Shown here: positions 5,206 to 54,228 of the stretch, piece by piece
Numbering within the stretch: position 1 is the stretch's first letter
Layout: each line of letters starts with the position of its first letter
Virus record (IMG/VR): IMGVR_UViG_3300021961_000025
Length of the DNA: 64,000 bases
Strand: one strand, 5' to 3'
From: a virus
The notes under the pieces: generated by a model
Database searches by the model: none
Told to the model about the DNA's origin: nothing
What the model saw: only the letters and a program-made list of their open reading frames with translations
Translations under genes and position numbers: made by a program

Positions 5206-5469
5206 ATGACACGTGAAGAAATATCTTTAGCAATTGTGGAAGCAATTAAGAAGATTACTATGAAAAGCGATATCGAGATTCATGGTGATACGGATCTAAG
5301 GAATGATGTTGGTATTGACAGTTTAGATACTGTTGAGTTGCTAATGGACTTAGAAGATAATTACGGAGTGATTATTTCTAATGAAGAGGCAGAAACATTT
5401 AAAACTTTAGATGATGTGGTTACAATGGTTGAAGAAAAGTTAAACGACCCAAGTAAGAACAAGGAATAA
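5206..5469 (+). CDS. acpP: Acyl carrier protein
   Basis: 87 aa, acidic, GIDSLDTVELLMDLED phosphopantetheine-attachment motif. Confidence 0.9.
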   Translation: MTREEISLAIVEAIKKITMKSDIEIHGDTDLRNDVGIDSLDTVELLMDLEDNYGVIISNEEAETFKTLDDVVTMVEEKLNDPSKNKE

Positions 5470-5476
5470 AAATTAA

Positions 5477-5965
5477 ATGGCTGGATTACATATACTTAAA
5501 AACTCGCATCAAGAGGCAATAGTCAAAGTTTATACGACGAGTCCTTCAGGAGAAACTATTGATATTTCTCTACAGAACACTCTAACTTTGCCTACTGAAG
5601 TATATGTTACAGGAACAGCACTCACTGATGAAAGTGTAGATGGTGGTTATTCTACCTATACTGGTTCACATGTTATTATAACTGGTATTTGGTGGGGTGC
5701 TAAGGATGGTAAACAAGTAGACATTCTGCGTAAGATTGATGCTGTACCTACTTATCACAATCACTATTATCTAATTGGTGCGAACTTTTACGACTTTAAA
5801 GCATCAGGATTTGCTGATCGTGTTTACGCAAATAAAGATATTACAGTTAGTTTTGTTGGTGGAGAAGGACATTGTATTCTTCGCCTAAGTAAAATGGGTT
5901 GGAATCAAAAGATAGAATTACCACAATTTTCGGTTTATGATAATCCGAACGTTGTTGGTTCATAA
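5477..5965 (+). CDS. Hypothetical (probable virion) protein
   Basis: ORF with RBS in late cluster. Confidence 0.55.
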   Translation: MAGLHILKNSHQEAIVKVYTTSPSGETIDISLQNTLTLPTEVYVTGTALTDESVDGGYSTYTGSHVIITGIWWGAKDGKQVDILRKIDAVPTYHNHYYLIGANFYDFKASGFADRVYANKDITVSFVGGEGHCILRLSKMGWNQKIELPQFSVYDNPNVVGS

Positions 5966-5977
5966 TAGAGGTTACGA

Positions 5978-6415
5978 ATGGATGAATTGAAAACAGCTTT
6001 AAAGATTGCAATCGCAAATAGTTTTGCAATGTATTATAAAGCACAGGCTATGCATTGGAATGTTGAGGGAATGTTCTTTGGACAGTTCCACGAATTCTTT
6101 GGTAATGTATACGAAGATATTTACGAGTCTATCGATAAGTCGGCAGAACAATTACGTGCACTAGGAGAGTATGCTCCTGCAAGTATTGACGATCTATATC
6201 GATATAAAACAGTAAATGAAAGTCAGCTAAATAGAGATGTAACGTCACAGTTAGAAGATCTATTAGTGACTAACACGATGCTTTTGGAGTCTTGGATGAA
6301 AGTACTTCATGAAGCAGAAAGCGAAATGCAACATGGTTTAGAAAACTATGCTGCTGAACGAATCGATGCTCATAAAAAACATGAGTGGATGATCAAATCA
6401 TATTTAAGGAAATAA
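5978..6415 (+). CDS. dps: Dps/ferritin-like DNA protection protein
   Basis: HWNVEG..F..HEFF..Y..D..AEQLR and terminal H.K..WM ferroxidase signature. Confidence 0.9.
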   Translation: MDELKTALKIAIANSFAMYYKAQAMHWNVEGMFFGQFHEFFGNVYEDIYESIDKSAEQLRALGEYAPASIDDLYRYKTVNESQLNRDVTSQLEDLLVTNTMLLESWMKVLHEAESEMQHGLENYAAERIDAHKKHEWMIKSYLRK

Positions 6416-6416
6416 A

Positions 6417-6611
6417 ATGGAAAATAATGAAGTAAAAAATACAGAAGTAAAAGTAGAGGAAACTCCTGCTACTGCTCCTGCTGAACAAGTTGCTAGTGAA
6501 ACTAAAGTAGAAACACCTGCTGCTGCACCTGCAGTAGAAGCACCTAAGAACCCACTAATTGATGCAACAGTAAAAGAACTAAGTGACAAAATGGGATTCC
6601 GAGGTAATTAA
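6417..6611 (+). CDS. Small Ala/Pro/Glu-rich hypothetical protein
   Basis: ORF with RBS. Confidence 0.55.
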   Translation: MENNEVKNTEVKVEETPATAPAEQVASETKVETPAAAPAVEAPKNPLIDATVKELSDKMGFRGN

Positions 6612-6627
6612 TTAAATCGAGGAAGAA

Positions 6628-10583: not shown

Positions 10584-10585
10584 AA

Positions 10586-11814: not shown

Positions 11815-12846
11815 ATGCTTTATATTGATGCGAAATACGCTAGTATGTTACAACCTCGTGTTCGTAACTTCAAACAGCTAAAAGATTACCTATGGAACTT
11901 CTCTTGTCCAGTTTGTGGTGATAGTAAAAAGAACAAACTAAAAGCAAGAGCATACATCTATCGTAAGAAGAACGATCTATTTGTTAAATGCCATAACTGT
12001 GCTTATGGTTCGAACATTGGTAACTTTATTAAGTTTATTGATGTATCGTTATATGATGCCTATGCACTAGAGCGATTTTCACAAGGCACACATCGTTCGA
12101 ACGATCATAAGGTTCCAGACTTCTTTGAACAATTTAAAGAGGAGCCTATGTTAGAAGAAAAGATTGAGGACGAGTTACTCTCTACTCTACGTTGTATTGA
12201 CGATCTAAAAGAAGATCATCCTATACGTCAATACTGTATTAATCGTAAGATACCTCTTGCGAGTTTAAAAAATTTATACTACACATCAAAGTTTTTTGAT
12301 TGGGTAAACAATAACATCGTCTGGAAGTTTCCAGAAATCGGTGGCGACCATCCACGTCTTGTCATACCTTTTATTGATGAGCATGGTCGAGTTATTGCAA
12401 TTACTGGTAGAGCATTCGGTGAAGAGAAACCTAAGTATTATACCATTAAGGTAAAAGAAAACGCACCAAAAATTTTTGGGCTAGAACGTATTAATTATGC
12501 AAAGACTGTGCATGTGGTTGAAGGACCAATCGATAGTTTGTTCTTGCCTAATTGTATTGCTGTTGCTGGTAGTGACTTTGATACTATAGAAGTCCAAGCC
12601 ATTAAGAGCAATGTAATATTGATACCTGATAACGAGCCACGAAATAAAGAGATCGTTAAGATGGTAAACAAATATATAGAAAACGACTATCGTGTTGTGA
12701 TGTTTCCTGACACAGTCGTTGAAAAAGATATTAATGAGATGATACTTGCAGGAAAGACTTCCGAAGATATTATGTCACTAATTAACACTAACGTGTATTC
12801 TGGTATGGAAGCACAAATGAGGTTTAGTCAATGGAAGAAATGTTAA
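11815..12846 (+). CDS. gp61: DNA primase (T4 gp61-like)
   Basis: CPVCGDS..CHNC zinc finger, EGPIDS TOPRIM, DNEPRN, KDINEM. Confidence 0.95.
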   Translation: MLYIDAKYASMLQPRVRNFKQLKDYLWNFSCPVCGDSKKNKLKARAYIYRKKNDLFVKCHNCAYGSNIGNFIKFIDVSLYDAYALERFSQGTHRSNDHKVPDFFEQFKEEPMLEEKIEDELLSTLRCIDDLKEDHPIRQYCINRKIPLASLKNLYYTSKFFDWVNNNIVWKFPEIGGDHPRLVIPFIDEHGRVIAITGRAFGEEKPKYYTIKVKENAPKIFGLERINYAKTVHVVEGPIDSLFLPNCIAVAGSDFDTIEVQAIKSNVILIPDNEPRNKEIVKMVNKYIENDYRVVMFPDTVVEKDINEMILAGKTSEDIMSLINTNVYSGMEAQMRFSQWKKC

Positions 12847-13214
12847 ATTACGACTTTGATTTTAAAGTCGATGGGTCGATGGTAAGAAATTATAGTGTTG
12901 CGTGTAGCGACAAAAACCCAATACATTTTTCTCCACACAATGTAGTTCCTGGAGGATTGATTACTGGACTACTACTAAGTAATCCTGTGGACAATTATTA
13001 CATTCGTAAAATAGAAATTAAGTTTTTGAATGTAACATACTATCCTGCTACAATAAACGTTAAACGAAAAGTAACTTCCTACAAAATAGGAAAATCTGGA
13101 ATACGTGCACAGATGGTAATGAGTGCATTCGTTAATGGCGAATGTGTTTGTGAAGCATCTGGTGAAGTATTCAAACCCAACGAGGAGTTCTATGACAGAA
13201 TCAAAGGTAATTGA
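12840..13214 (+). CDS. MaoC/hotdog-fold (R)-hydratase/dehydratase
   Basis: YS..SDKNPIH hydratase-2 motif, VVPGGL, F...Y.P. Confidence 0.7.
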   Translation: MLNYDFDFKVDGSMVRNYSVACSDKNPIHFSPHNVVPGGLITGLLLSNPVDNYYIRKIEIKFLNVTYYPATINVKRKVTSYKIGKSGIRAQMVMSAFVNGECVCEASGEVFKPNEEFYDRIKGN

Positions 13215-27088: not shown

Positions 27089-27640
27089 ATGAACAAAATT
27101 ATTATCACAGGCGATGGTGAAGGTATTGGTCTTGGACTGCGTAATGCTCTAAGTCCAATTGCTAATGTAGTAGGTTACGATCTTAAACAAGGTAAGAACG
27201 TAGCACTTGAGCCAACCTATTCAGAAGTTATTAAAAATTGCGAGGATGCGAATGTCGTAATCCTCAACGCACACACAGGTGAGCAACATTCGATGCTTGC
27301 CGAACTCTACGTCCTCTACAAAGATAAACCTATTCATTGTATCGTACTCGGTTCAATGGTCACTCAGTATTACAGTGATAGTGACTCAGTACCCAAAGAA
27401 TTTAACTTTGTAAAATATTATAATGATAAAGCGAAACTAGATCATAAAGTCAAAGTAATACACACCAATGGACAAAAACCTTTTCGTGTCACGATCGTTC
27501 GTCCATCTTGGGTAGAAACTCCACTAGCAAAAGAATATAATGGTAAGAAATTACCAGTAACTGCAGTTGTTAACTCAATTGTAGATATAATCAACGCACC
27601 TTATCACGTGACAACATTAAATTTAGAAGAGATTGAATAA
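27089..27640 (+). CDS. Short-chain dehydrogenase/reductase
   Basis: ITGDGEGIG Rossmann motif, NA, GS, YYNDK (YxxxK), PSWVET. Confidence 0.8.
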   Translation: MNKIIITGDGEGIGLGLRNALSPIANVVGYDLKQGKNVALEPTYSEVIKNCEDANVVILNAHTGEQHSMLAELYVLYKDKPIHCIVLGSMVTQYYSDSDSVPKEFNFVKYYNDKAKLDHKVKVIHTNGQKPFRVTIVRPSWVETPLAKEYNGKKLPVTAVVNSIVDIINAPYHVTTLNLEEIE

Positions 27641-27641
27641 T

Positions 27642-35311: not shown

Positions 35312-35730
35312 TGCAGTCTAAATTTCAACAACTGTTTATGAAATTTGCAGAAGAAACTGCTAAAGTCTCTTCTGCTACGAAACTGCAAGTTGGTGCAGTT
35401 ATAGTGAAGAACAATCGAGTTATTTCGATTGGATACAATGGTACTCCTGCTGGATGGGATAACGTTTGCGAGGATGCTGATGGTCACACTAAATCTGAGG
35501 TAATGCATGCTGAAGAGAATGCGATACTTAAACTTGCTAGAGATGGCGAGTCTGGTTTAGGAAGTTGGATGTTTTTAACCCACGCACCTTGCATACATTG
35601 TGCGAGAATGATACATGGAGTAGGAATAAATACTATTGTTTATGGACAAAAATACAAAAACGACGAAGGACTGGAATTTCTGGAAAAGTCAAATATACCG
35701 ACTTTCCACTTCCAACAATCTCATTCTTAG
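35311..35730 (+). CDS. dCMP deaminase
   Basis: VGAVIV..IGYNG.P, HAEENAI, PCIHC. Confidence 0.9.
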   Translation: MQSKFQQLFMKFAEETAKVSSATKLQVGAVIVKNNRVISIGYNGTPAGWDNVCEDADGHTKSEVMHAEENAILKLARDGESGLGSWMFLTHAPCIHCARMIHGVGINTIVYGQKYKNDEGLEFLEKSNIPTFHFQQSHS

Positions 35731-36457
35731 AATAGGCTACTATGGATTTCTTCATGCTCTTGCTCTTTATGGGATTATTAGTTGGGGGAGTTTGGGGTTT
35801 GTGGCGACTGCTCTCGGAATTTGGTTTGTGGGGGGGATTGCTGTTAGTGTTTATGTCCATCGTGGTTTGGCTCATGGAGTCGTTCAATTTCATCCAGTAA
35901 TAGAGTATATACTTTTAATTTTCTCAATAGGTAGTGGCATAGGTACACCAGTAGGATGGGCAGCAATCCATCGAATGCATCACGAATATTTGGACACGGA
36001 TCAAGATCCACATAGTCCTTGGCGTATAGGTTTTTGGAGAAGTTATTTTCATTTATGGAACTGGGAGGCAAAAGATGTGCCTTACCGAATGGCAAAAGGT
36101 TTGATTAGTAACAAACGTGCTATGATGTTTCATAATTGGGCAGTACCAATTCTAATTCTATTTTGGATTGGTTGTTTTAGTTTCGGTATGTGGTTTGCCA
36201 CTGCAGCAGCATTAGGTGCAGCATTTGGTGTTCACGGAATGGGATTAACAAATGCTTTTAGTCATCATGGCAAAGAGCGAAAAGAGATTCGAGATTTACC
36301 GAAGTGGTTATCTTGGGTTAACGTAGGTGAAGGACAGCACGAATATCATCATGCTCGTCCATGGGATTATAGTTTCGGAAAAGGGTACTCTGATATCGGT
36401 GCAAGATTTGTTGAGGTATTAGAGAAATTGGGTTTGGCTACTATCAAAAGGAAATGA
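35642..36457 (+). CDS. Membrane fatty-acid (delta-9-type) desaturase; start uncertain
   Basis: His boxes HRGLAH, HRMHH..DT..DPHSP, GEG.HEYHH; TM helices. Confidence 0.9.
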   Translation: MDKNTKTTKDWNFWKSQIYRLSTSNNLILRIGYYGFLHALALYGIISWGSLGFVATALGIWFVGGIAVSVYVHRGLAHGVVQFHPVIEYILLIFSIGSGIGTPVGWAAIHRMHHEYLDTDQDPHSPWRIGFWRSYFHLWNWEAKDVPYRMAKGLISNKRAMMFHNWAVPILILFWIGCFSFGMWFATAAALGAAFGVHGMGLTNAFSHHGKERKEIRDLPKWLSWVNVGEGQHEYHHARPWDYSFGKGYSDIGARFVEVLEKLGLATIKRK

Positions 36458-37645: not shown

Positions 37646-37721
37646 TCGCTCGTAGCTCAGTGGATAGAGCACTTGTCTACGGAACAAGGGGTCGCACGTT
37701 CGAATCGTGCCGAGCGAGCCA
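37646..37721 (+). tRNA. tRNA-Arg(ACG)
   Basis: TCGCTCG/CGAGCGA acceptor, CT-ACG-GA loop, TTCGAAT, encoded CCA. Confidence 0.92.
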
Positions 37722-37752
37722 AGAAAACACTTCAGACAAGATAGGTGACAAC

Positions 37753-38213: not shown

Positions 38214-39059
38214 ATGTTTGTAGCAACACATCCAAGAGAAGTTTTTAACTACACAGATGAAACTGTGATAGCAAACTCGCATCCACCTTACGCAGTAAAA
38301 CTCAAAGTCCCTTTCTCACGTCCATTCACTGACGAAGATTTCATTTCAAAACTACCTATTCCAAAATATTGGTTTGATCCAAAGCACATCCCTGAAAAGA
38401 TGACTTTGATTGATTACCTTATTCATCCTATTAAAAAAGATTATAATGCAGATGTAGGTTACTGTAGCGAGGGTAACTATCGTCAAGGAACTAACTTGGG
38501 TACGGATATTATTCGTATGCCAATGGATAAAATTGTTTGGAAAAACAAATACGAATTTTGGTGGTCTTGTATTGATATTATTAATAACGAAAATAGTTCA
38601 GATCTTGTTCATCCACGATTTACAAAATGGTTAAATGAAAGAGATCTTATTCTATTAGGTTGGGATATTTTTATTACACCACCTAATATGTGGTTGCTTT
38701 ATCACAAAGACACCTACAACGAATGCTGCAAATTAAACTTCGTATATCATTTTAATATGGATGGTTACTCTTGTCAAAGTTATTTTGACGATAATGCTAA
38801 AGGAGATGGTATTGTTTCTGGAGATCCAGATGTAAAATATCGTATTCCACCAGAAGTAAAACCAAAGATGATACACGAACATAATCTATCAAACGATTTA
38901 ACGATGCCATCACTAACCAACATTGGTAAGTGGCATTGTGTATATAACTCTACATCTGGACCAAGAGTTTGCCTTAGCTATATGATTGGTAAAAAAAATG
39001 GTAGAGATATAACTTGGGATAAAGTATATCCACAAGTTGAAAAGGATGTAATTTGGTAA
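38214..39059 (+). CDS. Fe(II)/2OG-type (DSBH) oxygenase, array A member 1
   Basis: F.TPP..YHKD..KLNF..NIGKWHCVYN..R. Confidence 0.65.
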   Translation: MFVATHPREVFNYTDETVIANSHPPYAVKLKVPFSRPFTDEDFISKLPIPKYWFDPKHIPEKMTLIDYLIHPIKKDYNADVGYCSEGNYRQGTNLGTDIIRMPMDKIVWKNKYEFWWSCIDIINNENSSDLVHPRFTKWLNERDLILLGWDIFITPPNMWLLYHKDTYNECCKLNFVYHFNMDGYSCQSYFDDNAKGDGIVSGDPDVKYRIPPEVKPKMIHEHNLSNDLTMPSLTNIGKWHCVYNSTSGPRVCLSYMIGKKNGRDITWDKVYPQVEKDVIW

Positions 39060-39664
39060 TGACTTACATCAAGCAAGTAAAGTTTCCATTCAATATACCT
39101 TATGACGATCCTATGATGATCCAATCTTTTCGTGAAGAAGCAAAGAAAGAGATTAAAAAAAATCCATTAGTTCAAAACTATGGCATCGATTATGACGCCA
39201 GTGGAGTTAGTGAAACTGCTCGTGCTTTCTTTAATCAACAGGGGTATGATGTAGTTGGATGCGAATACTTTTACTTTGAGCCAAATTTTAAAATGGGTAT
39301 TCATATTGATGGCAGTAAGTATTGCTACAAAGCAAAATTTAATTGGGTACTTAACGATAACGTAACGCATATCTTTAAATTCTTCGAGCCAATAGTAGAA
39401 GGAAAATCGGATGCTCACAACGATGGCAATAGTCCGTATAGTCTACAGTTTGATGAAAAAATGGTTGTCGAAAAAGAAGCAAATGTAATTGGCAAACCAA
39501 GTTTATGTATGGTGGGAGTTCCACACCAAGTAATTAATGGACCAAAAGAATTAGAATTATTTAATGTCTGTGTTTGGAAAAAAGGTGTAAAGAGATCTCA
39601 TCCAGATTTAGGTGGTATGGATATGCAAGATGCATTAAAGGATTTCAGTAAATATGTTATATAA
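39059..39664 (+). CDS. DSBH oxygenase, array A member 2
   Basis: IHIDG..KFNW..VGVPHQVIN. Confidence 0.7.
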   Translation: MTYIKQVKFPFNIPYDDPMMIQSFREEAKKEIKKNPLVQNYGIDYDASGVSETARAFFNQQGYDVVGCEYFYFEPNFKMGIHIDGSKYCYKAKFNWVLNDNVTHIFKFFEPIVEGKSDAHNDGNSPYSLQFDEKMVVEKEANVIGKPSLCMVGVPHQVINGPKELELFNVCVWKKGVKRSHPDLGGMDMQDALKDFSKYVI

Positions 39665-40241
39665 AAGATTAAGACATCAAGAACACTTAGAACCAATTCC
39701 ACAACCATTAACACCTTTAGGTATGGCTTGGGCTAAAGACTATCCATTCGAAAAACAAACTAAAATATTTACTGAGAGGAATTTATTTAATCCTGAGTTT
39801 GAAGAATGGCTTTGGAAACATGGACAACTAAGAATTGCAGATATTGAATTGTTTTTAAATCCAGCTAATCACAGCATGCCTGTTCACATAGATGGTGAAA
39901 CAATTTGTGATGTCTGTAAAATAAACTTTGCATATTGCGATAGTCCTAGCTTTATGAAATGGTATAAACCTTTAGTTCCAGGAACTAGAGGAAACTTACC
40001 TTATGCAAATGGAAAACCAACCAACACTGTTGATATGTATTGGCAGTGGGATGGCGTAGAAGAATTAGAATCGGAAGAGATATCTATACATCTCGTGAAT
40101 GTAGGTGTTCCTCATAGTGTAACAACTACAGAAACTGAAAGGCGATGTTTATCTGTTAACCTAGATAAAATTATGCCTGATGGTACTGAAATTACTGAAG
40201 TGCCTTTTAGAATGGGTTTAGAATGTTTATCGCTCACTTAG
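39654..40241 (+). CDS. DSBH oxygenase, array A member 3
   Basis: VHIDG..KINF..NVGVPHSV..RR.LS. Confidence 0.7.
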   Translation: MLYKRLRHQEHLEPIPQPLTPLGMAWAKDYPFEKQTKIFTERNLFNPEFEEWLWKHGQLRIADIELFLNPANHSMPVHIDGETICDVCKINFAYCDSPSFMKWYKPLVPGTRGNLPYANGKPTNTVDMYWQWDGVEELESEEISIHLVNVGVPHSVTTTETERRCLSVNLDKIMPDGTEITEVPFRMGLECLSLT

Positions 40242-40789
40242 AAATACCACACAAACCATTTACTGAAGAGAACTGGCAACGTAGACTTCCATTGAAAGGA
40301 CACGTTCCTATTGATCAATCTTTGATTAATAAAGAAATGATTGATTGGTTTGAAATGAAAGGTATGTGGATTAAAAATGTGGATGTCTTTTGTAGTCCTC
40401 CAGGATTTAGATTACCTATTCACGTAGACGGAAAGAAAATTGATCATTGTTGCGCAATTAATTGGGCATATTGTGATGAGTTGGGTGCACTTATGGAGTG
40501 GTGGAAACCTAAATCAGATGTTATAAGAACAGTAACTCCAGGAACAGAAAAGACTGCATACAATATAACTACAACACCTTATGCATTTGCATGGTCAGAT
40601 GATGAGTGTGATAAAGTTTTTGAATCGGAAGTAAAGCAACCCTCTCTAGTTAATATTGGTCAACCACATGCTATGACCAATCATACAAACAGTCAGCGTT
40701 TTGCAATTAGTATTACTTTCCGTAATTTTAATGGAGTCGATATGCAATTTGAGGAAGCACATGCAAGATTACAACCACACCTACTTTAG
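40223..40789 (+). CDS. DSBH oxygenase, array A member 4
   Basis: IHVDG..AINW..NIGQPHAMTN..R..IS. Confidence 0.7.
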   Translation: MFIAHLEIPHKPFTEENWQRRLPLKGHVPIDQSLINKEMIDWFEMKGMWIKNVDVFCSPPGFRLPIHVDGKKIDHCCAINWAYCDELGALMEWWKPKSDVIRTVTPGTEKTAYNITTTPYAFAWSDDECDKVFESEVKQPSLVNIGQPHAMTNHTNSQRFAISITFRNFNGVDMQFEEAHARLQPHLL

Positions 40790-41345
40790 AAATTTAAAAT
40801 TAGACTTTGATCCTTTTAGTGACAAGTACGTTTTTCCAGAAAGCCAAACTCAGAAAGCTAAATACACAGACCATATCGACAATCGAGAACTTATTAATCC
40901 AAAGTTAATTGATTGGGCGACGAGTATTGGTTTAGGTGTTACAAGAATAGAGAGATTCAGTAGCAATCCAAACTATCGTATGTATATACATACTGATAAT
41001 CATGATTGGATTGACAATTTGGTTAAGATCATTTGGTGTTATTGTCCTACCAATGATCATCGTATGACTTGGTACACACTTAAAGACGAATCGTGGTACG
41101 AAGTTATTACAAACAATGATAGTGGTGGAACCATGATGTTTCCAGACTTTAATTGCGTTGAAGAGGTAAGCACTACAATAATGCCCAACTCTCCAATACT
41201 TGCAAATACTGGTCAACCACACAATATAGAAAACGGACAAAATTACAGGCATGTTGTATGTGCATGGTTTCATACTTTAAAAAATCCACAGATTGACTTG
41301 CAATGGGATCTTGCGGTAAAATGTATGAAAGAATTTATTATTTAA
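40761..41345 (+). CDS. DSBH oxygenase, array A member 5
   Basis: IHTD..KIIW..NTGQPHNIEN..R. Confidence 0.7.
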   Translation: MQDYNHTYFRNLKLDFDPFSDKYVFPESQTQKAKYTDHIDNRELINPKLIDWATSIGLGVTRIERFSSNPNYRMYIHTDNHDWIDNLVKIIWCYCPTNDHRMTWYTLKDESWYEVITNNDSGGTMMFPDFNCVEEVSTTIMPNSPILANTGQPHNIENGQNYRHVVCAWFHTLKNPQIDLQWDLAVKCMKEFII

Positions 41346-41355: not shown

Positions 41356-42531
41356 ATGAAAAAATGTTATGTTGTTGGTTATGGGATGATTGATTCCTTA
41401 GGAAATAATCCAGTGGATTGTTTCGCTAAAATGCTTGATCCTATCGACTACTCGTCGGAACTACCAAGACTAAAAGAAGAAAATTTTCCAGTTTATCGTG
41501 GAGCGATTTTTGATCCAGAAACGATAGTTATGCCTGAGGACTTTGATCCAAAAATGGCGAGGACTTTGACTAACGCACAAAAGATGATGTTGCATGCTAC
41601 TGATCAAGCACTAGCAATGTCACGATTACCTCATCACTATGATGTAGCTGTGCTTATGTCGTCAGTTTCTAATGATACAGAATTCTTAGAGCAAAATTAT
41701 AATGCGATTAAGGATAACAGAAGAGTAAACCCAAGACAGTCTGCGAATCGAATTCCAGACATGGGATGTTCACACATAACATCACATTATCAATTCATGG
41801 GTTTATCGACCGCAGTATTTGCTAGTTGTGCAACTGGTTTGGTCGGTATCGATTATGCAATGCGTCTCGTAGATGAATACGAGTATGTTGTTGTAGGTGG
41901 TGCCGATGCTGGTTGCTTTCCGATGGCTATCAAATACTTTAACACTATGGGAGCAGTTGCCAATCATAGTATGCCTTTCGATGATAATCGTAAGGGATTT
42001 CTAATGGGAGATGGCTGTGGGGTTATGATTTTACAATCGGAGAAAAATGTAAAGAAATATGGTAGCACTGTCCATGCGACACTTTATCCAACTGGATGTG
42101 CTAGTGATGCTATGGATATGACGAGTCCTGCGAACGATGGTCGTGGTGCTAGAATCTCTATGGCAAAAGCAATGGAACACGTAGACAAAGTAGATTATGT
42201 ATGTGCGCATGCGACATCTACTTTTGTTGGCGATCCCATTGAATATGAAACTGTAGTTAGCTTTGTGGGTGATACTCCTATTTGGGCACCAAAGTCTAAG
42301 ATCGGACACACACTTGCTGCTGCTGGAATACTTGAGGGAATCTATTCCATTCTTGCGATGCAACATGGTATTGTACCTCATATTCAAAACCTCACAAATG
42401 CCTCTCTCGACACAAAGGACTTGCTCGTACGAGAGAATCAAACAAACTCGAACAAATGCTTGAGAACGCTTAACAATTCTTTTGGCTTTGGAGGTAAATG
42501 CGTTTCTCAGGTAATTGAGGTAAACAAATGA
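41356..42531 (+). CDS. fabF: Beta-ketoacyl-ACP synthase (FabF/FabB type)
   Basis: ASCATG (Cys), PFD..R.GF.MG.G, HATST, KSKIGH, NSFGFGG. Confidence 0.92.
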   Translation: MKKCYVVGYGMIDSLGNNPVDCFAKMLDPIDYSSELPRLKEENFPVYRGAIFDPETIVMPEDFDPKMARTLTNAQKMMLHATDQALAMSRLPHHYDVAVLMSSVSNDTEFLEQNYNAIKDNRRVNPRQSANRIPDMGCSHITSHYQFMGLSTAVFASCATGLVGIDYAMRLVDEYEYVVVGGADAGCFPMAIKYFNTMGAVANHSMPFDDNRKGFLMGDGCGVMILQSEKNVKKYGSTVHATLYPTGCASDAMDMTSPANDGRGARISMAKAMEHVDKVDYVCAHATSTFVGDPIEYETVVSFVGDTPIWAPKSKIGHTLAAAGILEGIYSILAMQHGIVPHIQNLTNASLDTKDLLVRENQTNSNKCLRTLNNSFGFGGKCVSQVIEVNK

Positions 42532-42878
42532 GTTGGGGATATCACCTAATCATTGATTGTAAGGCATGCGAAAAAAACTTTAAAGAACCAGATATTATGA
42601 AAAAATTTGTCGCAACATTACTAGAAAAAATAAAAATGAATGCTTGGGGTGAGTGTCAAGTTGAACACTTCGCAGAAAAACCAGAGATTGCTGGTTGGAC
42701 TGTTATTCAACCATTGACGACAAGCACATTAACAATGCATTTCTTGGATAATTCAGGAGATCTATACTTTGATCTTTTCAGTTGTAAGAAATTTGATATT
42801 CAAGAAGTCGTGGATCACTTAGCTGAGTATTTTGCTCCAGTTAATATTCGTCCATTCTATCTTGAAAGGAGTGCCTAA
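42528..42878 (+). CDS. speD: S-adenosylmethionine decarboxylase-like pyruvoyl enzyme
   Basis: GYHLIID, G.T..Q.LTTS.L.MH, Y.DLFSCK.FD. Confidence 0.75.
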   Translation: MSWGYHLIIDCKACEKNFKEPDIMKKFVATLLEKIKMNAWGECQVEHFAEKPEIAGWTVIQPLTTSTLTMHFLDNSGDLYFDLFSCKKFDIQEVVDHLAEYFAPVNIRPFYLERSA

Positions 42879-42880: not shown

Positions 42881-43351
42881 TTGCTAACACCAAAAGAAGC
42901 ACTAATGAGGTGGCTTAATAGAATCCAGATACCTCAAGAAAAGTTATCTGGATTTGCCATCTGTCCATTTAGTAAACAGATTCGTGGAGAACCTGCAATG
43001 ATCTCTACATTAGTAGAAGATATTGTTCCACCAAAAGTAAGCGAAATTAAAAAGATTCTAGTTTATCATATTCTTGATGAGGATATTACTATTGAAGAAC
43101 TAGAGAATGAAGTGTTTATATTGAATTCTAAATATAAACCAGAGTTACTATTTTTAGGCGATCATATGGATCGTGATACATATATTAATGGTGTTCAAAC
43201 TAATAATGGACATTATAACTTTATACTGTGCCAACCACTAGATGATTTGAGAAGTGCAAGAAAAGTACTTGCTAAAACTCCATATTACTCTTACTGGGAT
43301 GACGAGTATTTAAAAGAAATCTTAGGAGAAGATTATGGCAGTTTGGACTGA
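42881..43351 (+). CDS. DUF1415-like protein
   Basis: W...I..G..CPF, DH, L..AR..L..T.YY..W. Confidence 0.55.
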   Translation: MLTPKEALMRWLNRIQIPQEKLSGFAICPFSKQIRGEPAMISTLVEDIVPPKVSEIKKILVYHILDEDITIEELENEVFILNSKYKPELLFLGDHMDRDTYINGVQTNNGHYNFILCQPLDDLRSARKVLAKTPYYSYWDDEYLKEILGEDYGSLD

Positions 43352-44423
43352 TTACGACCCACTAAAAGAAATTATTGTTGGTAGTTGCCCAACAGCAGAA
43401 TACTTCAAAGCATTCCTACCTGATGATGTAATTGCTGCACTTACACCAATCCTTAAAGAAACCAAAGAAGATCTAGATAATATGCAACGAGTGTTTGAAT
43501 CACTCGGTGTTAAAGTATATCGTCCTAAGATTTTACCATTTCAACAGAATTTAAAACTTCCTGGATTCTCAATTAAAAATGCTATTGCACCTATTGTTCC
43601 TCGTGATCAATACTTGGTGTATGGTGATACTATTATCCAATCATATACTTCAATGCCAGATCGTTGGCTTGAGGGATTATGTTTCTATGATATCTTCAAC
43701 GAAAAGTTTGACGAAGGATATAATTGGATAAGTGTACCACCACCTGTTATTAAAAACTTCCCTTCAAATACTTCTTGGTTTACTCATGGTGGCGATCGTT
43801 ATAAGATCGAAATGAAAGATAAACTACTCTGGCATGCAGCAACAATGTTTAAAATTGGCGACAGTTTAATTGTCAATAATCAAGGTCCAGGAACTCAAAA
43901 AGGATATGAGTGGTTTAAACGTCAGTTACCTCAAACCAAATTTGTAGATAACATTAAGAAACCACATCGTGGATGGGGACATATTGATCAATACTTCTTT
44001 TTAGTTAATGATACTACTTGTTTCTGTACTGATGAGAATTATGTTCCAGAAGCAATTAGACAAAATCCAAATATCAAAGTCCATTCATTTGGGCATTTGA
44101 TTAAAGATGTTGATCTTAACTCTTACGATGATAATCTAGTTGCAAGCGATGGTAAATTTACCAAAGGCTGGATTGATGAATGGGTTGGTGAATGGAGAGG
44201 GTTTGCACAAGACGTTGCTTTTGATAGTAACGTTGTTGTAGTAGATGAAAAGAATATCGTTATAAGTAACGAACAGCCAAAACTACAAGAGTGGTTATTA
44301 AAGAATCACGGAGTAACTGCTCACGTTGCAAAACAGAGACAAGGTGGTTTCTGGGATGGTGGCGTTCATTGTTTAACGCTAGATATTAAGCGTGATGGAG
44401 TATCAAGAAATGTCTTGGGTTAA
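43335..44423 (+). CDS. Amidinotransferase (Arg:glycine/inosamine amidinotransferase family)
   Basis: W...DPLKEIIVG, PRD, GHID, GGVHCLTLD..R. Confidence 0.85.
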   Translation: MAVWTDYDPLKEIIVGSCPTAEYFKAFLPDDVIAALTPILKETKEDLDNMQRVFESLGVKVYRPKILPFQQNLKLPGFSIKNAIAPIVPRDQYLVYGDTIIQSYTSMPDRWLEGLCFYDIFNEKFDEGYNWISVPPPVIKNFPSNTSWFTHGGDRYKIEMKDKLLWHAATMFKIGDSLIVNNQGPGTQKGYEWFKRQLPQTKFVDNIKKPHRGWGHIDQYFFLVNDTTCFCTDENYVPEAIRQNPNIKVHSFGHLIKDVDLNSYDDNLVASDGKFTKGWIDEWVGEWRGFAQDVAFDSNVVVVDEKNIVISNEQPKLQEWLLKNHGVTAHVAKQRQGGFWDGGVHCLTLDIKRDGVSRNVLG

Positions 44424-45021
44424 CGCTAAAACCTATACACATTATGCAGATTTAGAAAAAGCAATTCCTATTGTTGTAGAAGAAACACAACAATGGATGA
44501 AGCATAATCACGATATTGTTGGTGTTACGGTAAATACCTTTGGAGTAAATAGTAAAGAAGATTTAACCGAAGTCCCTGTTACACCAGAAGAGTATAAGCA
44601 TATGGATGACTGGAGAGTTTTACCTATGCTTTATGCGAAAGAGTGGAATCGACATGTATTTCCAAAGTCGCACTTTTTGCTTGCTCCACTTCCAGGACTG
44701 TATCAAGCATTAGTAAATTTTGTTGTTCCTGGAGGAAGGATTGCGAAACATCGTGACACAGGAAACTGGGACAGGATTGAAGAACACTATGGGATTCGTA
44801 TTGATGGTTATAGTGTGGTACTTAATCTTAACATCGCTATGAGTGATAAGAAAGAAAAAACAGTAGGTATGGAAGTTGGTGGATTTGAAAAGTATCCACT
44901 AACTGGAGAGATCGTCGCATTTGATGGTCGTTCAACAGCACATAGTATGTGGAATTTAACAGATCAATGGCGAGTTACTGCTGTACTTGACTTTGATAAG
45001 AGGTATTTCAATGTGGATTAA
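44410..45021 (+). CDS. Asp/Asn beta-hydroxylase-like oxygenase, array B member 1
   Basis: LPGL..VNF..PGG.I..HRD..FDG...HSMWN.T..WRV. Confidence 0.75.
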   Translation: MSWVNAKTYTHYADLEKAIPIVVEETQQWMKHNHDIVGVTVNTFGVNSKEDLTEVPVTPEEYKHMDDWRVLPMLYAKEWNRHVFPKSHFLLAPLPGLYQALVNFVVPGGRIAKHRDTGNWDRIEEHYGIRIDGYSVVLNLNIAMSDKKEKTVGMEVGGFEKYPLTGEIVAFDGRSTAHSMWNLTDQWRVTAVLDFDKRYFNVD

Positions 45022-45724
45022 TGTAAAGAAGTATAAACACTACGACAAGTTATTGGAGATTATTCCATTAGCACAACAAGACTTTGCTAATTGGAAAGAC
45101 AAATACAAATACGAAGATCGTATGCAGGTATTAAAGTTTGAACATCCAGATGTTTATCCTGAATTAAAAGGAACATCTACAAGCAGTGATCTTTATCACC
45201 GACCAGAAAGTATTCCAGATCGACCAAATCCAAAAGAGAATTGGTTCTGCGATCCTTGCAGTACAGACACTGGTAAGAAGATTGGTCCAGCATTTCAAGA
45301 CTGGAAACTATCAGCACCTAAAATTTTAGAACTTCCAGGATTTGTTCAACACCTTGTTAACTTTGTTAAGCCACATAGTAGCTTACCACCACACGATGAC
45401 TTGGGTGGATGGGTAAGACTATCAAAAGATACTGGAAGAGAATTAAATGGATTTAGTGTAGTATTAGGACTAGATACAGTAAAGAATAAAGACCAAATGG
45501 GTATTATGTTTAATAACGTTTGGACTGGCAATAAAGATCCACGTGCATGGGGTATTGGCGAGTGGGTTGCATTTGAGGGTAAAACTCATTTTCACGATGT
45601 GTTTAATAGAACAGATCAATGGCGAGTTACTGTCGTTGTAGATATTGAATACGATCAGTTTGATTTAAGTGATGAAGAGTTAGACTATTTACAAAATCGT
45701 TGGAGAACTTATAAACCTGTATGA
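45011..45724 (+). CDS. Asp/Asn beta-hydroxylase-like oxygenase, array B member 2
   Basis: VNFVKP..LPPHDD..FEG..HFHDVFN.T..WRV. Confidence 0.75.
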   Translation: MWINVKKYKHYDKLLEIIPLAQQDFANWKDKYKYEDRMQVLKFEHPDVYPELKGTSTSSDLYHRPESIPDRPNPKENWFCDPCSTDTGKKIGPAFQDWKLSAPKILELPGFVQHLVNFVKPHSSLPPHDDLGGWVRLSKDTGRELNGFSVVLGLDTVKNKDQMGIMFNNVWTGNKDPRAWGIGEWVAFEGKTHFHDVFNRTDQWRVTVVVDIEYDQFDLSDEELDYLQNRWRTYKPV

Positions 45725-45894
45725 AAAAAACAATAATAAAAATATTAGATGTAACTAAAGATATACTAGAGTGGTGGATTTACTGGGTGTTTTATGTAGT
45801 AGCTGTTCCACTTTTCTTCGGTGGACTAGCTGTAATATGGACGATAGATCAAGCGATGGAATTAATAAAGAAAATTTATAAACGTTATAGGTAG
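45721..45894 (+). CDS. Small membrane protein (not in ORF track)
   Basis: ATGA-coupled, 57 aa, one TM. Confidence 0.45.
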   Translation: MKKTIIKILDVTKDILEWWIYWVFYVVAVPLFFGGLAVIWTIDQAMELIKKIYKRYR

Positions 45895-45897
45895 AAA

Positions 45898-46482
45898 ATG
45901 TGGAGAAATTATAAAGATTATAAACACCATGGATTGCTTAGAGAAGTACATCAAGCAATGCATGCAGATTATCTAGATTGGATAAAAACTCATGATATTA
46001 GAAACAGTACTGTTAATGTGTTTAAGTATGAGTATCCTGAAGCAAAGCATCAATACGCAGACTCTTGGTGGGCGATACCTATTGCGCAGGGTGGTAAACT
46101 CGAACCCAATGACTGGAAAAGAACATCACCACTTGTAGAAAAACTTCCTGGATTACTACAGTGTGTTATTAATTTTATTGAACCACAAGGTGGACTACCA
46201 ATGCATAAAGACATGGGTAGTTGGCATCGTATTGAACAGGCTATCGGACGCAGAGTAACAGGATGGACGATTGGTATTGGTATCGATATGCCTAGTGAAT
46301 CACATAGAGAATTAGCAATTAAATTTCTTGAAGATGATATTGGAACATGCTATAAAAACGGAGAGTTCGTTTGTTTCGATGGACGTAATCATCTACACGA
46401 AGTTTGGAATAAAACAGACAAATGGCGAGTCAGTGCAGTAATTGATCTCGATGATAAGGAGTTTCGAAATGTGGTTGGGTGA
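45898..46482 (+). CDS. Asp/Asn beta-hydroxylase-like oxygenase, array B member 3
   Basis: INFIEP..LPMHKD..FDGR..HEVWNKT..WRV. Confidence 0.75.
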   Translation: MWRNYKDYKHHGLLREVHQAMHADYLDWIKTHDIRNSTVNVFKYEYPEAKHQYADSWWAIPIAQGGKLEPNDWKRTSPLVEKLPGLLQCVINFIEPQGGLPMHKDMGSWHRIEQAIGRRVTGWTIGIGIDMPSESHRELAIKFLEDDIGTCYKNGEFVCFDGRNHLHEVWNKTDKWRVSAVIDLDDKEFRNVVG

Positions 46483-47050
46483 TCCAATTCAATATAAGCA
46501 TTACACCAAATTACAAGATTTGATGACTGCGATGATGCAAGATCATCTTGAATGGAAAGAAAAATATACCATTGAGGAAAAATGCATTGACGCTGGATTG
46601 CGTTATAAAATGCCTGCAGAAAACACTGGTGGCTTTATGGCACTACCAGTAATTGACGCAAGAGAAATTAAAATGCCATGGGCAGAGGGATGGGATCGAA
46701 CTATGACTGCTGCCTTTGATTGTCCTGGAATGATTGATATGTGTATTAACTTCATTCGTCCAGGAATGATGTTACCTGTCCATCACGATGGGTATGTATG
46801 GGATTGGATTCGTAAATCGATGAACAATCCGAAATTATCTGGGTATACCATTTCTTTTGGTATTTCAATTCCTGAACCCAGTAAACAAGCACTAATCTTT
46901 GACGAAGAAAAACGTATTTGGAGTACTGGAGAGTTTCGTGCATTTAATGGGCACGACGTTCAACATCAACTTACAAATCGTTCGAAAGAACACTGGCGTG
47001 TAACTGCAGTGATGGAAGTCGAAGAAAAATATTTTGATCTGCAAGAGTAG
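46469..47050 (+). CDS. Asp/Asn beta-hydroxylase-like oxygenase, array B member 4
   Basis: INFIRPG..LPVHHD..FNG...HQLTN...WRV. Confidence 0.75.
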   Translation: MWLGDPIQYKHYTKLQDLMTAMMQDHLEWKEKYTIEEKCIDAGLRYKMPAENTGGFMALPVIDAREIKMPWAEGWDRTMTAAFDCPGMIDMCINFIRPGMMLPVHHDGYVWDWIRKSMNNPKLSGYTISFGISIPEPSKQALIFDEEKRIWSTGEFRAFNGHDVQHQLTNRSKEHWRVTAVMEVEEKYFDLQE

Positions 47051-51289: not shown

Positions 51290-51742
51290 ATGACATTTAA
51301 ATTATCACAAAGATCGTTAGACAGACTAGACGGAGTTGATGAATCCCTAGTCAATGTGGTCAAGCGAGCAATTGAATTAACTGATGTAGACTTTGGTGTT
51401 ACCGAAGGACTACGTTCAGAAGAAACTCAACGAAAGTATGTTGAGGCTGGCAAATCACAGACTATGAAGTCTAAGCATCTTGAGGGTAAAGCAGTCGATC
51501 TAGTTGCATACGTAGATGGTGCTGTTACTTGGGAATTAAACGTATATGATAATATTGCAGATGCTATGAAGAAAGCAGCAGACGAACAAGGTGTATCTGT
51601 TCGTTGGGGTGCAGCATGGCATATCAATAACATTTGCGACTTCTCAGGCACTATGGATGATGCAATGATGGAGTATATCGATAAACGTAGGGCAGAGGGC
51701 AAGCGTCCTTTTATTGACGCACCACACTTCGAACTTACATAA
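51290..51742 (+). CDS. Endolysin, peptidase M15 (L-Ala-D-Glu peptidase type)
   Basis: EGLR...Q, SKH..G.AVD, WG..W, D.PHFEL. Confidence 0.88.
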   Translation: MTFKLSQRSLDRLDGVDESLVNVVKRAIELTDVDFGVTEGLRSEETQRKYVEAGKSQTMKSKHLEGKAVDLVAYVDGAVTWELNVYDNIADAMKKAADEQGVSVRWGAAWHINNICDFSGTMDDAMMEYIDKRRAEGKRPFIDAPHFELT

Positions 51743-51777
51743 TTGCTTTGCAATTTATTATGTAGTATAATATTATG

Positions 51778-52431
51778 ATGAAATTTACACACATTGAACA
51801 TAACTTTCCTACGTTACAAAGAATAGACGGAGAACATGGTAGGGTTTATCAGACACCATCTGGTAAATCCTATCCATCCGTAACTTCTGTAACTGGATTA
51901 CTAAACAAAAAAGCCATTCAAGAATGGCGAGATAGAGTTGGTGCCAAAGTTGCGAACGAGATATCTACTCGTGCAGCAAAACGTGGGACAAGCATTCACA
52001 AACTGTGTGAAGATTATCTATCTAATAAAGGTGATACTTCGGACATCTTTGATCAAGAAGAATTCACACATATTAAACCTTACCTCCACAAAATCAATAA
52101 CATTCACTGCTTAGAAGATAAGCTGTACAGCGATCACTTAGGTGTTGCTGGAACAGTGGATTGTATTGCTGAGTATGAGGGTAAGTTATCAGTCATTGAC
52201 TTTAAAACTTCTTCAAAACCAAAAACGAGGGAGATGATTGCGAACTACTTTATGCAAACATCTGCTTATGCTGTTTGTTTTGAAGAATTATTTGGAAGAC
52301 CCATTGAAAGAATGTTAATTATTATGTCTGTCAAAGATCAAGGCATTGACATCTTTGAGGGTAAGCGAGATGACTATATCGATGGCTTTAAAAAGCTGAG
52401 AATTGAATATAAACAATGGAAGGGAATATAA
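51778..52431 (+). CDS. PD-(D/E)XK (Cas4-like) exonuclease
   Basis: YPSVT, RGT..H, AGTVDC, IDFKTS, YFMQ..AYA. Confidence 0.85.
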   Translation: MKFTHIEHNFPTLQRIDGEHGRVYQTPSGKSYPSVTSVTGLLNKKAIQEWRDRVGAKVANEISTRAAKRGTSIHKLCEDYLSNKGDTSDIFDQEEFTHIKPYLHKINNIHCLEDKLYSDHLGVAGTVDCIAEYEGKLSVIDFKTSSKPKTREMIANYFMQTSAYAVCFEELFGRPIERMLIIMSVKDQGIDIFEGKRDDYIDGFKKLRIEYKQWKGI

Positions 52432-52432
52432 G

Positions 52433-52954
52433 ATGAAACTACAAGATGTTTTATTCTACATGCGAGAGCGTGATGAATCGATCGGTGGAGACAATCCTTA
52501 CAAGTGGGTTTATAAGCATACAAATGATTTGTTTGCGAATAAGAAAGTTGTAATTTTTGGTCTTCCTGGAGCATTCACACCTACCTGTTCCAACTCACAA
52601 CTACCTGAATATGAACAACGTCATCAAGAGTTTAAAGATCTTGGTGTTGACGAAGTTTGGTGTACGTCTGTTAATGATGCGTTTGTAATGCATCAATGGG
52701 CGAAGTCACAAAACCTTGTTCATACAAAGTTGTTGCCTGATGGAAATGGAGACTTTGCGAAGTCTATGGGTATGCTAGTAGATAAACGTAATCTTGGATT
52801 CGGACATCGTAGCTGGAGATATTCTATGTTGGTTGACAACATGGAAGTCAAAGCGATTTTCAAAGAACCAGATCTAATGGATAACTGTCCATACGATCCA
52901 TTCTTTGTATCAGATGCTGACCAAATGATTGCGCATTTAAAAACAGTATGCTAA
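52433..52954 (+). CDS. Peroxiredoxin (Prx5 type)
   Basis: PGAFTPTCS, SVND.FVM..W, DGNG.F, RSWRYSM. Confidence 0.93.
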   Translation: MKLQDVLFYMRERDESIGGDNPYKWVYKHTNDLFANKKVVIFGLPGAFTPTCSNSQLPEYEQRHQEFKDLGVDEVWCTSVNDAFVMHQWAKSQNLVHTKLLPDGNGDFAKSMGMLVDKRNLGFGHRSWRYSMLVDNMEVKAIFKEPDLMDNCPYDPFFVSDADQMIAHLKTVC

Positions 52955-54228
52955 ACAACGAACTAAAACCTTTTAGTCTTGGTGAGAGCAATAAGAAAGT
53001 TATTGCTACATACGATTATTGGATTGAATACGAGGGAGGTTCTAAATCCCTCGAAATTCAATCTGGTAATGCTGCATTTACTTTAGGGTATAATCATAAT
53101 AAACTAAAACAACACATCTTTGACAATAAGGTTGATTTTGTTCGAGGTAATACTGGAGAGTCTTCTGAATTAGTAGATTCTCTTTCAGATTTATTATGCA
53201 ATATTTCTAATATGAAATCTATTGCTTATGCTGTAAGTGGTAGTGATGCTAACGAATCAGCAATTAATGCTGTGGATCGTTACTGGACTTCTAAAGGTGC
53301 ACATCGTCCATACATTATATCAATTGCTCCTTGTTATCACGGAACAACGTATACCACAAAGACATTATCAACAGAATTAGAAAGACCAAACTATAGTGGA
53401 TGGTCTGAGTTTAATAGAACAAGAGTTATTCTTGGTAAACGTTGGGAGGATGTTAAAGACCAACGTGCAAACGAATTATATAAGATAGCCAAACTTAAAG
53501 AGTATCTACAAACACACAGTAAAGAGACAGGTGCGATTATATTAGAATCGATACCTTGGAATGATCAAATTGCTCCCTACAGTAAAGAGTTTTGGCTAGA
53601 CATTGAAGCACTTGTAGACGAATACGATATTCTTTTTATATTGGATGATGTAGCTGGATGTTTCGGTAAGAACGAAAGACTATTTACACATCAGTATTTG
53701 TCTATTCGACCAGATATTATTACCATTGGTAAATCACTTACGAATGGTTATGTTCCTTTAAGTGCTAGTTTACATAATGATAAAGTTTCAAGTATGATTG
53801 CTAGTAAGACATGGGAACACGGACATACGTGGCAACCTACAATGAATGGTGTAGTTGCTGCACATATTTGTTTGATGGAACATATTCAACACATTGAAGA
53901 TAACAAACATAAGTATATTGGCGAACAGTTAGATGCATTAGGTAATGAGTTAGTACAAAAAGGTTTATCCGATGGATTCGTAAGACAAGGATCTTTTATG
54001 GGTATTAATACCTTTGGTATTGACGTAAGTTTAGCTAAACTATCAAATGCTGGTCTTGCAGCAACAACTGCAGCAGATCAAATAAAATTGGTAGTACCAA
54101 CTATTGCCAATGATAACTATTTTACAGAATTAAAAACCAGAGTTTATAATTTACTAGATGATGTTTATGCTTCTAAAAGAGCAATGGAAGAAACACTCAA
54201 AGGTTATATGAACTCAACGAGAGTATAG
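52948..54228 (+). CDS. Class III PLP aminotransferase (paralog of 27642)
   Basis: QSGN.A..LGY, FVRGN.GE, SGSDANE, YHG.T, DDVA.CFG, PDI..GKSL..G, GHTWQP.M. Confidence 0.88.
   Translation: MLNNELKPFSLGESNKKVIATYDYWIEYEGGSKSLEIQSGNAAFTLGYNHNKLKQHIFDNKVDFVRGNTGESSELVDSLSDLLCNISNMKSIAYAVSGSDANESAINAVDRYWTSKGAHRPYIISIAPCYHGTTYTTKTLSTELERPNYSGWSEFNRTRVILGKRWEDVKDQRANELYKIAKLKEYLQTHSKETGAIILESIPWNDQIAPYSKEFWLDIEALVDEYDILFILDDVAGCFGKNERLFTHQYLSIRPDIITIGKSLTNGYVPLSASLHNDKVSSMIASKTWEHGHTWQPTMNGVVAAHICLMEHIQHIEDNKHKYIGEQLDALGNELVQKGLSDGFVRQGSFMGINTFGIDVSLAKLSNAGLAATTAADQIKLVVPTIANDNYFTELKTRVYNLLDDVYASKRAMEETLKGYMNSTRV

Follow-up and report, generated by a model that had tools for sequence, protein, structure and literature searches.

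Do the carrier, lipid and aminotransferase genes scattered over an aquatic phage genome act together on one carrier-bound chain? The question is raised by the viral record IMGVR_UViG_3300021961_000025, the 64,000-nucleotide stretch of which is referred to here as the window. An earlier note on this DNA had proposed that an acyl carrier protein (ACP), a MaoC-type dehydratase, a short-chain dehydrogenase/reductase (SDR), two aminotransferases, a desaturase and a FabF-like beta-ketoacyl synthase (KS), spread between positions 5206 and 54228, form together with an amidinotransferase one type II fatty acid synthase (FAS)/polyketide synthase (PKS)-like pathway. We compared these genes with related viral and cellular sequences. 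Gain and loss of the KS are independent of gain and loss of the amidinotransferase module, and the window therefore probably carries two independently inherited functional units, a lipid unit (unit A) and an amine-to-guanidine tailoring unit (unit B), along with two accessory genes.

KS and amidinotransferase genes are inherited independently

All seven open reading frames (ORFs) are present where the earlier note had placed them and, like the amidinotransferase, its immediate neighbors and the oxygenase genes around them, lie on the + strand. The assigned identities are solid for the ACP, the FabF-like KS, both class III aminotransferases and the stearoyl-CoA-type desaturase; those of the SDR and the MaoC-like protein extend to motifs or fold only.

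Fifteen IMG/VR contigs carry a KS that is 74 to 78% identical to that of the window, and three whole records (G001 to G003) were compared; G003 is complete, at 144.8 kb, and bears terminal repeats. Synteny in these records covers the pair of SDR and aminotransferase 1, the desaturase, the small oxygenases, the KS, the genes for a SpeD-like and a CPF-motif protein, the amidinotransferase and hydroxylase genes and aminotransferase 2; the ACP, the MaoC-like gene, ferritin, ThyX, PhoH and peroxiredoxin are missing from them. The proposal had counted the ACP and the MaoC-like protein as pathway members, and this part of it fails in G001 to G003, where the KS, the amidinotransferase, the SDR, both aminotransferases and the desaturase are all kept in their absence.

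The KS family has >3600 members, typically 52 to 64% identical, on contigs of up to 330 kb. Fifty KS-bearing viral records were searched whole for partner genes. The desaturase was the sole recurrent partner (25/50 records, typically ~3 kb from the KS), and an ACP was found in 2/50 records and in 0/3 near-complete genomes. AdoMet_dc genes occurred in 13 of the 50 records, class III aminotransferases in 12 and amidinotransferases in 10; the aminotransferase and amidinotransferase matches were limited to the clade of the window and a sister clade at 58% KS identity, except for one aminotransferase in a record whose KS is 42% identical (G049). After dereplication at 70% KS identity, an amidinotransferase lay within 10 kb of the KS in 1/18 distant groups and an ACP in 0/18.

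Searches from the amidinotransferase gave the converse picture. An alignment-based scan returned 147 viral loci with an amidinotransferase homolog; a single-sequence scan of IMG/VR gave one locus, and single-sequence scans of IMG/VR with the ACP and with aminotransferase 1 gave nothing. Sixty-three of these loci, at under 48% identity to the window protein, represent 22 lineages when dereplicated at 70%, and their neighbors were recorded within 10 kb. A KS was near the amidinotransferase in none of the 63 loci and none of the 22 lineages. When 50 distant amidinotransferase records, fragments of 225 to 270 kb included, were searched whole, a KS was found in 0/50 and an ACP in 2/50. The genes that do recur are a class III aminotransferase, usually adjacent and convergent (43/63 loci; 12/22 lineages), the CPF-motif gene, directly upstream in 39/63 loci and within 10 kb in 16/22 lineages, a short SDR (28/63; 8/22), a SpeD-like gene (24/63; 10/22) and small oxygenases (21/63; 7/22). 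The core of SDR, aminotransferase, CPF-motif protein and amidinotransferase occurs in at least five gene orders. Other frequent partners in distant phages are B12-binding and SPASM radical S-adenosylmethionine (SAM) enzymes, a flavin halogenase, 2-oxoglutarate (2OG)-dependent and AspH-type oxygenases and a methyltransferase.

Phylogenetic profiling across related phages had been set beforehand as a test of a single pathway, and by this test the genes are gained and lost independently: the KS stands without an ACP in 48/50 records, G003 with its whole KS cluster among them, and the amidinotransferase stands without a KS in 50/50 distant records. In the window, catalytic motifs are intact in the ACP, the KS, the hot-dog dehydratase-like protein, the SDR, the desaturase, the aminotransferases and the amidinotransferase, and the KS gene borders on the SpeD-like and amidinotransferase genes, as one would expect if all seven genes and the amidinotransferase cluster made up one line in which a chain on the phage ACP is built, hydroxylated, oxidized, aminated and amidinated. 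That line would need parts that the complete genome G003 lacks while keeping all the others, and it would join a KS and an amidinotransferase that are inherited separately; the conserved neighbors of its SDR are the amidinotransferase and the aminotransferase, not the KS. We regard it as very unlikely, since the gain-and-loss pattern largely refutes it.

The inventory of the window points the same way. A comparison of ~80 window ORFs with Pfam, in which ORFs shorter than ~100 amino acids (aa) were only partly covered, returned no FabD, FabI, FabG-type protein or phosphopantetheinyl transferase (PPTase), in agreement with the earlier note, which had seen no PPTase, FabD or enoyl reductase. From the set that defines a type II FAS, the window thus has a carrier protein and an elongating KS with a Cys-His-His active site; FabD, enoyl reductase and PPTase were not found among the ORFs scanned, and joint inheritance as one functional set was not observed. 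A type II PKS has a KS-alpha/chain-length-factor pair with a dedicated ACP. The window has a single KS gene, and no second KS-like ORF that could be a chain-length-factor partner was found in the window or in the whole records G001 to G003.

The SDR and the aminotransferases belong with the amidinotransferase

The short SDR (27089..27640; 183 aa) has TGxxxGxG and YxxxK motifs and belongs to a family of 165- to 205-aa proteins. It gave no Pfam match, a weak NCBIfam match and no usable PDB sequence match. All 16 homologs have T7, G14 and K114, at least 90% of them have G8 and Y110, and the upstream Ser is present in most. Its stop overlaps the start of aminotransferase 1 by 8 nucleotides (nt), and the two genes are predicted to be translationally coupled. 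The SDR adjoins an aminotransferase in all T4-like relatives; its association is with the aminotransferase and the amidinotransferase and not with the KS. A role for the SDR as the FabG-type ketoreductase of unit A was considered and rejected as the principal reading, its conserved neighbors being the amidinotransferase and the aminotransferase.

Aminotransferase 1 (27633..28850; PF00202, E of 1e-54, 186 bits versus a cut-off of 30.5) and its paralog aminotransferase 2 (52948..54228; PF00202, E of 2e-41, 143 bits versus the same cut-off) are class III, omega-transaminase-like enzymes in which the lysine of the GK motif (K261) and the DD motif (D232/D233) are invariant. The best solved structures for aminotransferase 1 are the omega-transaminases 3hmu and 4a6r. 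Omega-transaminases aminate ketones and aldehydes, and aminotransferase 1, being omega-transaminase-like, would suit a step that follows oxidation by the SDR. Aminotransferase 2 sits 8.5 kb downstream of the amidinotransferase, occupies the same position in the clade at 75 to 78% KS identity and is missing in the 58% clade. In a tree of the phage aminotransferases, one clade holds amidinotransferase-adjacent enzymes and a second holds aminotransferase 1, aminotransferase 2, which forms a group of its own, and further amidinotransferase-linked members. Identities as BioA or ArgD were rejected, as both enzymes score far under the bioA and argD NCBIfam cut-offs.

An 88.6-kb marine T4-like contig (JGI 3300020468) carries a class III aminotransferase 53% identical to aminotransferase 1 (L263:10001-11248). 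It lies between giant fiber-like genes (4195 aa; 1829 aa with Ig-like matches) and gp13/gp14/gp15, with no SDR or amidinotransferase nearby.

Such a lone gene among fiber and neck genes, the fact that the best NCBIfam models for the aminotransferases are of the bioA/argD type, albeit far under cut-off, and the habit of T4-like hyperplastic regions of gathering unrelated genes would all suit a scenario without any pathway, in which every gene would work by itself in the primary metabolism of the host as an auxiliary metabolic gene: ornithine, putrescine or biotin intermediates would be substrates of the aminotransferases, polyamines the field of SpeD, and lipids that of the KS and the desaturase. 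We consider this unlikely, given that SDR, CPF-motif, amidinotransferase and aminotransferase genes stay adjacent across at least five gene orders and 22 dereplicated lineages and that the SDR and aminotransferase 1 overlap and are paired in all T4-like relatives.

The ACP and the MaoC-like protein are accessory genes of one subclade

The ACP (5206..5469; PF00550, E of 5.5e-12, above cut-off) carries the phosphopantetheine-attachment serine of a carrier protein in its DSL motif (GIDSLD). It lies in an island with ferritin and is found with the same neighbors, at 78% identity, in a second record (L265). None of the records G001 to G003, the complete G003 included, has it, and a PF00550 profile search returned no carrier protein there. 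Relative to G003, the window has insertions at 5206-6611 (the ACP, a 162-aa protein, ferritin and a 64-aa ORF) and at 12831-13214 (the MaoC-like gene). Both are common to the nearest relatives of the window (L265), where the ACP, the MaoC-like gene, ferritin and ThyX keep the same order. ACPs are known from other large phages, such as phiCbK-like phages and P-HM1.

The MaoC-like protein (12831..13214), a possible (R)-hydratase/dehydratase, is encoded between the primase gene and the next conserved gene and is absent from G001 to G003. Only 7 homologs, at 80 to 98% identity, were found among 5.8 billion proteins, and there was no Pfam match and no usable PDB sequence match. Its SDKNPIH motif, within YSVACSDKNPIH, resembles that of the hydratase-2 family and is close to canonical; it departs from the pattern [YF]-x-x-[STG]-G-D-x-N-P-[LIV]-H in that Ser replaces Gly. 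A low-confidence model (predicted local distance difference test [pLDDT] score of 60) matched hot-dog thioesterases/dehydratases such as HadAB, HTD2 and PhaJ in Foldseek with an E of ~1e-4, and the top language-model neighbor of the protein is a viral cluster in which 58% of members have MaoC_dehydratas. Both genes, the ACP and the MaoC-like one, are accessory genes of the subclade to which the window belongs, and the KS and the amidinotransferase module can each do without the ACP.

The KS and the desaturase as a probable lipid unit

The KS (41356..42531; PF00109 and PF02801 above cut-off) is a FabF-like elongating enzyme. Its best NCBIfam model is fabF, at 218 bits and thus under the 494-bit equivalog cut-off, and its best solved structures are the FabF enzymes 1j3n and 1kas (E of 1e-40). 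C158, H285, H318 and the NSFGFGG motif are invariant in 13 homologs. Like the FabF of Escherichia coli (1kas) and Thermus thermophilus (1j3n), the phage protein of ~390 aa has the thiolase fold, the Cys-His-His triad and the Lys and GFGG motifs; unlike bacterial FabF, to which it is ~30 to 35% identical, it is encoded by phages and mostly without any other FAS gene.

The desaturase (35636..36457) is a membrane protein of the stearoyl-CoA type (delta-9-like), with PF00487 at 33.1 bits versus a cut-off of 29.7, three His boxes (HRGLAH, HRMHH and HEYHH) and matches to the stearoyl-CoA desaturase (SCD1) structures 4zyo and 4ymk (E of 1e-9). Because a dCMP/cytidine deaminase-like gene (35308-35730) overlaps its annotated start by ~90 nt, the start codon is uncertain. 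The link between the KS and desaturation is real, not universal.

Unit A would consist of the KS and the delta-9-type desaturase, to which the phage ACP and the MaoC-like dehydratase may add in this subclade. With a complete decarboxylating active site and mostly no phage-encoded partners, the KS most likely feeds on host malonyl-ACP and acyl-ACP, a use of host ACP that we infer. Together with the desaturase, it would most likely modify the membrane lipids of the infected host, both in chain length and in unsaturation.

In a further record, IMG/VR 3300005583_000005, a KS of the same family lies between a 2OG-Fe(II) oxygenase and a soluble acyl-ACP desaturase (L061:9204-12101). This desaturase (PF03405, E of 4e-52) is non-homologous to that of the window, and the record also has an ACP.

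The amidinotransferase module would install guanidino groups

The amidinotransferase (43335..44423) gave no Pfam match at an E of 0.01. Its PDB sequence matches are HsvA (2e-19), StrB1 (6e-18), AGAT (3e-16) and SxtG (1e-15), and its PRD, HID and GGxHC motifs are kept in all 20 homologs, with D91, H216, D218 and H345-C346 invariant. Judged by these residues and matches, it is a true, L-arginine-type member of the AGAT/StrB1/HsvA/SxtG family. HsvA, a polyamine amidinotransferase of Erwinia amylovora (PDB 5wpi), is the best solved relative, at an identity of only ~25 to 30% and with StrB1, AGAT and SxtG indistinguishable from it by score; the hsv-type ATP-grasp partners of HsvA are not present in the window. 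Among cultured phages in GenBank, full-length relatives were found in none except Campylobacter phages: CP220, in which the protein is labeled glycine amidinotransferase, and F379 match over the full length at 27% identity.

Immediately upstream lie two small genes. The first (42528..42878) encodes a divergent SpeD-like protein with an S-adenosylmethionine decarboxylase fold, for which PF02675 scores 55.7 bits versus 104 to 107 bits for canonical phage SpeD in two other records (G014 and G030). By eye, residues near the expected Ser processing site look changed from the canonical SpeD motif, and the protein may not be a SAM decarboxylase. A SpeD-like gene next to the amidinotransferase would fit a polyamine substrate.

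The second (42881..43351) encodes the CPF-motif protein, the most constant neighbor of the amidinotransferase, in which Cys28-Pro29 is invariant. Its model is confident (pLDDT score of 93.6) and shows a new-looking fold: Foldseek gave no match in the PDB, and a profile search of PDB and YqcI/YcgG sequences gave none either, with DUF6875 alone appearing (4/30 members). The best VIA match was AglA (9ub3; Z of 6.3, root mean square deviation of 4.0, 144 residues aligned), below the tool noise at Z of 7 to 8. AglA is a heme-thiolate guanidine N-hydroxylase with a sandwich fold and an N-terminal Cys ligand (YqcI/YcgG group). The invariant Cys28-Pro29 hints at such a ligand, no Pfam link to this group was found, and at Z of 6.3 the likeness is a lead only.

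Two sets of putative iron oxygenases surround these genes. Upstream of the KS are five paralogous small HxD...H (cupin/2OG-oxygenase-like) proteins (38214..41345), with HxD and distal PH motifs and without a Pfam match; such paralogs recur beside the KS and inside distant amidinotransferase clusters. Following the amidinotransferase are four Asp/Arg beta-hydroxylase-like (AspH/LpxO family) paralogs (44392..47050; PF05118, E of 1e-7 to 3e-3), which are syntenic in relatives.

The order of steps and the substrate in unit B are what we infer from the gene identities, catalytic residues and co-occurrence. Besides the amidinotransferase itself, unit B would comprise the short SDR, the class III aminotransferases, the SpeD-like and CPF-motif proteins and the Fe-oxygenases around them. 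The SDR would oxidize an alcohol to a carbonyl, the omega-type aminotransferase would convert the carbonyl to an amine, and the amidinotransferase would move the amidino group of arginine onto that amine. An oxygenase step from C-H to C-OH is plausible because HxD...H oxygenases co-occur. The substrate is predicted to be soluble or peptide-like and not ACP bound; candidates are a polyamine, an amino-sugar or inositol, and a peptide. The company of radical SAM, SPASM and AspH genes in other phages would fit a peptide.

The dehydrogenase-aminotransferase-amidinotransferase logic is known from streptidine biosynthesis. Its application to this DNA by the earlier note holds in outline, with the genes mostly adjacent, in varied orders, in distant phages. 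The streptidine branch (dehydrogenase, StsC and StrB1, PDB 1bwd) and unit B share the same chemical logic and the same amidinotransferase family, and the other enzymes differ: streptidine uses the DegT/StsC aminotransferase, whereas the phage aminotransferase is of class III and the phage dehydrogenase is a short SDR of 165 to 205 aa. The streptidine pathway also has inositol dehydrogenase and kinase steps, and no kinase was seen in the phage module. The three streptidine-type activities are encoded together in distant phages; the window has them at two separate places, 27 kb and 43 kb. Unit B as a whole, compact in other phages, is distributed in the window over 27 kb (SDR-aminotransferase 1), 42.5 to 44.4 kb and 53 kb (aminotransferase 2). 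Distant phage clusters include radical SAM genes, whereas the window version has none, is split over these three sites and lies beside a KS.

In distant loci (L119 to L182), the amidinotransferase core is set within large tailoring clusters that contain up to three B12-binding radical SAM genes, SPASM radical SAM genes, methyltransferases and tandem HxD..H paralogs; the flavin halogenase there matches Trp_halogenase with an E of 5e-87. Cellular counterparts are rare: two amidinotransferase alignments, run against 185,579 species genomes, matched at only 3 loci, of which one is probably phage DNA in a Polynucleobacter metagenome-assembled genome (MAG). Another of the three is in the Pseudobdellovibrionaceae MAG JAYVPG010000050 (L268/L270), where the amidinotransferase gene has the company seen in the distant phage clusters and stands among ~10 radical SAM genes and an AspH-like gene.

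Proximity of the two units in the window clade

Several observations weigh against a clean division into two units. In the window and the 58% clades, the KS lies directly or at most 6 kb upstream of the SpeD-like, CPF-motif and amidinotransferase genes, between the two oxygenase arrays. The SDR could in principle work as a FabG-like ketoreductase, and a desaturase is within 10 kb of the KS in only 4/18 distant groups (dereplicated at 70% KS identity). Most viral records are fragments, so absences are weak evidence outside the few near-complete genomes.

Because the KS abuts unit B in the window clade, a merger confined to that clade keeps some probability: in fonsimyophages, the phage type of the window, an acyl chain made by the KS on host ACP would be joined to an aminated or amidinated head group, giving for example an N-acyl or guanidino lipid. 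The KS, SpeD-like, CPF-motif and amidinotransferase genes are contiguous and oxygenase flanked in the clade at 75 to 78% KS identity and lie within 6 kb in the 58% clade, and AspH/LpxO-family hydroxylases, a family that includes lipid acyl-chain hydroxylases, follow the amidinotransferase. No acyltransferase or ligase to join the halves was found, in two records (L033 and L034) the KS and the SpeD-like gene are ~6 kb apart, with unrelated small genes and an AAA gene in between, and little can be built on adjacency when it falls within a hyperplastic region, as in this T4-like genome. We judge such a merger to be decidedly unlikely. Equally speculative, and to be given similarly little credence, is a broader form of the idea in which the SDR/class III aminotransferase/CPF/amidinotransferase core is an undescribed phage pathway (>100 aquatic contigs) that installs guanidino groups and possibly N-hydroxylates them, and which in fonsimyophages is joined to the KS to yield a nitrogen-bearing lipid or lipid-like molecule. 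Two separately inherited units are the reading that we favor.

The window is of the fonsimyophage type

By its T4 core genes and gene content, the window is a freshwater T4-like pelagimyophage of the fonsimyophage type. Nearly all genes are on the + strand, and the G+C content is ~36%. The T4-type core genes are gp32, gp59, RNase H, class I ribonucleotide reductase, SegE, a primase-like gene and DUF6267; further genes encode ThyX, PhoH, ferritin, peroxiredoxin, three tRNAs and one transfer-messenger RNA (tmRNA). Genes for fabF, stearoyl-CoA desaturase, speH, Asp/Asn hydroxylases and bS21 are characteristic of fonsimyophages (PMP-D, freshwater pelagimyophages), and fabF and the desaturase of such phages have been labeled "genes involved in lipid biosynthesis" (Zaragoza-Solas et al. 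2020, PMC7029224). The window is the same kind of phage and has the same set of fabF, desaturase, speH/SpeD-like, Asp/Asn hydroxylase and bS21 genes. The published description is one of annotation only, without co-occurrence analysis, and the ACP, the aminotransferases and the amidinotransferase are unmentioned in it.

Against GenBank phages, 6 kb of the window gave no megablast match, and tblastn searches with the KS and aminotransferase 1 returned only bacterial contamination or transduced genes; none of the cultured phages in GenBank has the KS or the aminotransferase family of the window.

The fabF-desaturase pair is the already published lipid gene set of freshwater SAR11-type phages (PMC7029224), and the ACP is a sporadic extra. 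The SDR-aminotransferase-amidinotransferase module is a conserved phage pathway, nearly absent from cellular genomes, in which a streptidine-like logic would be run by different enzyme classes and in phages. If the predicted chemistry is true, infection by abundant aquatic phages involves the synthesis of guanidino compounds. As split in the window, the module amounts to a minimal set (SDR, aminotransferase, SpeD-like protein, CPF-motif protein and amidinotransferase) without radical SAM enzymes, which is open to reconstitution at the bench.

Two further features of the window were noted. The deaminase-like gene that overlaps the desaturase start has a second dCMP/cytidine deaminase-like counterpart at 37660-38208, and the two lie on either side of the tRNA cluster. 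At 54878-55470, the tmRNA gene is directly followed by a gene for a bS21 ribosomal protein homolog, and the bS21 counterpart in L033 has PF01165.

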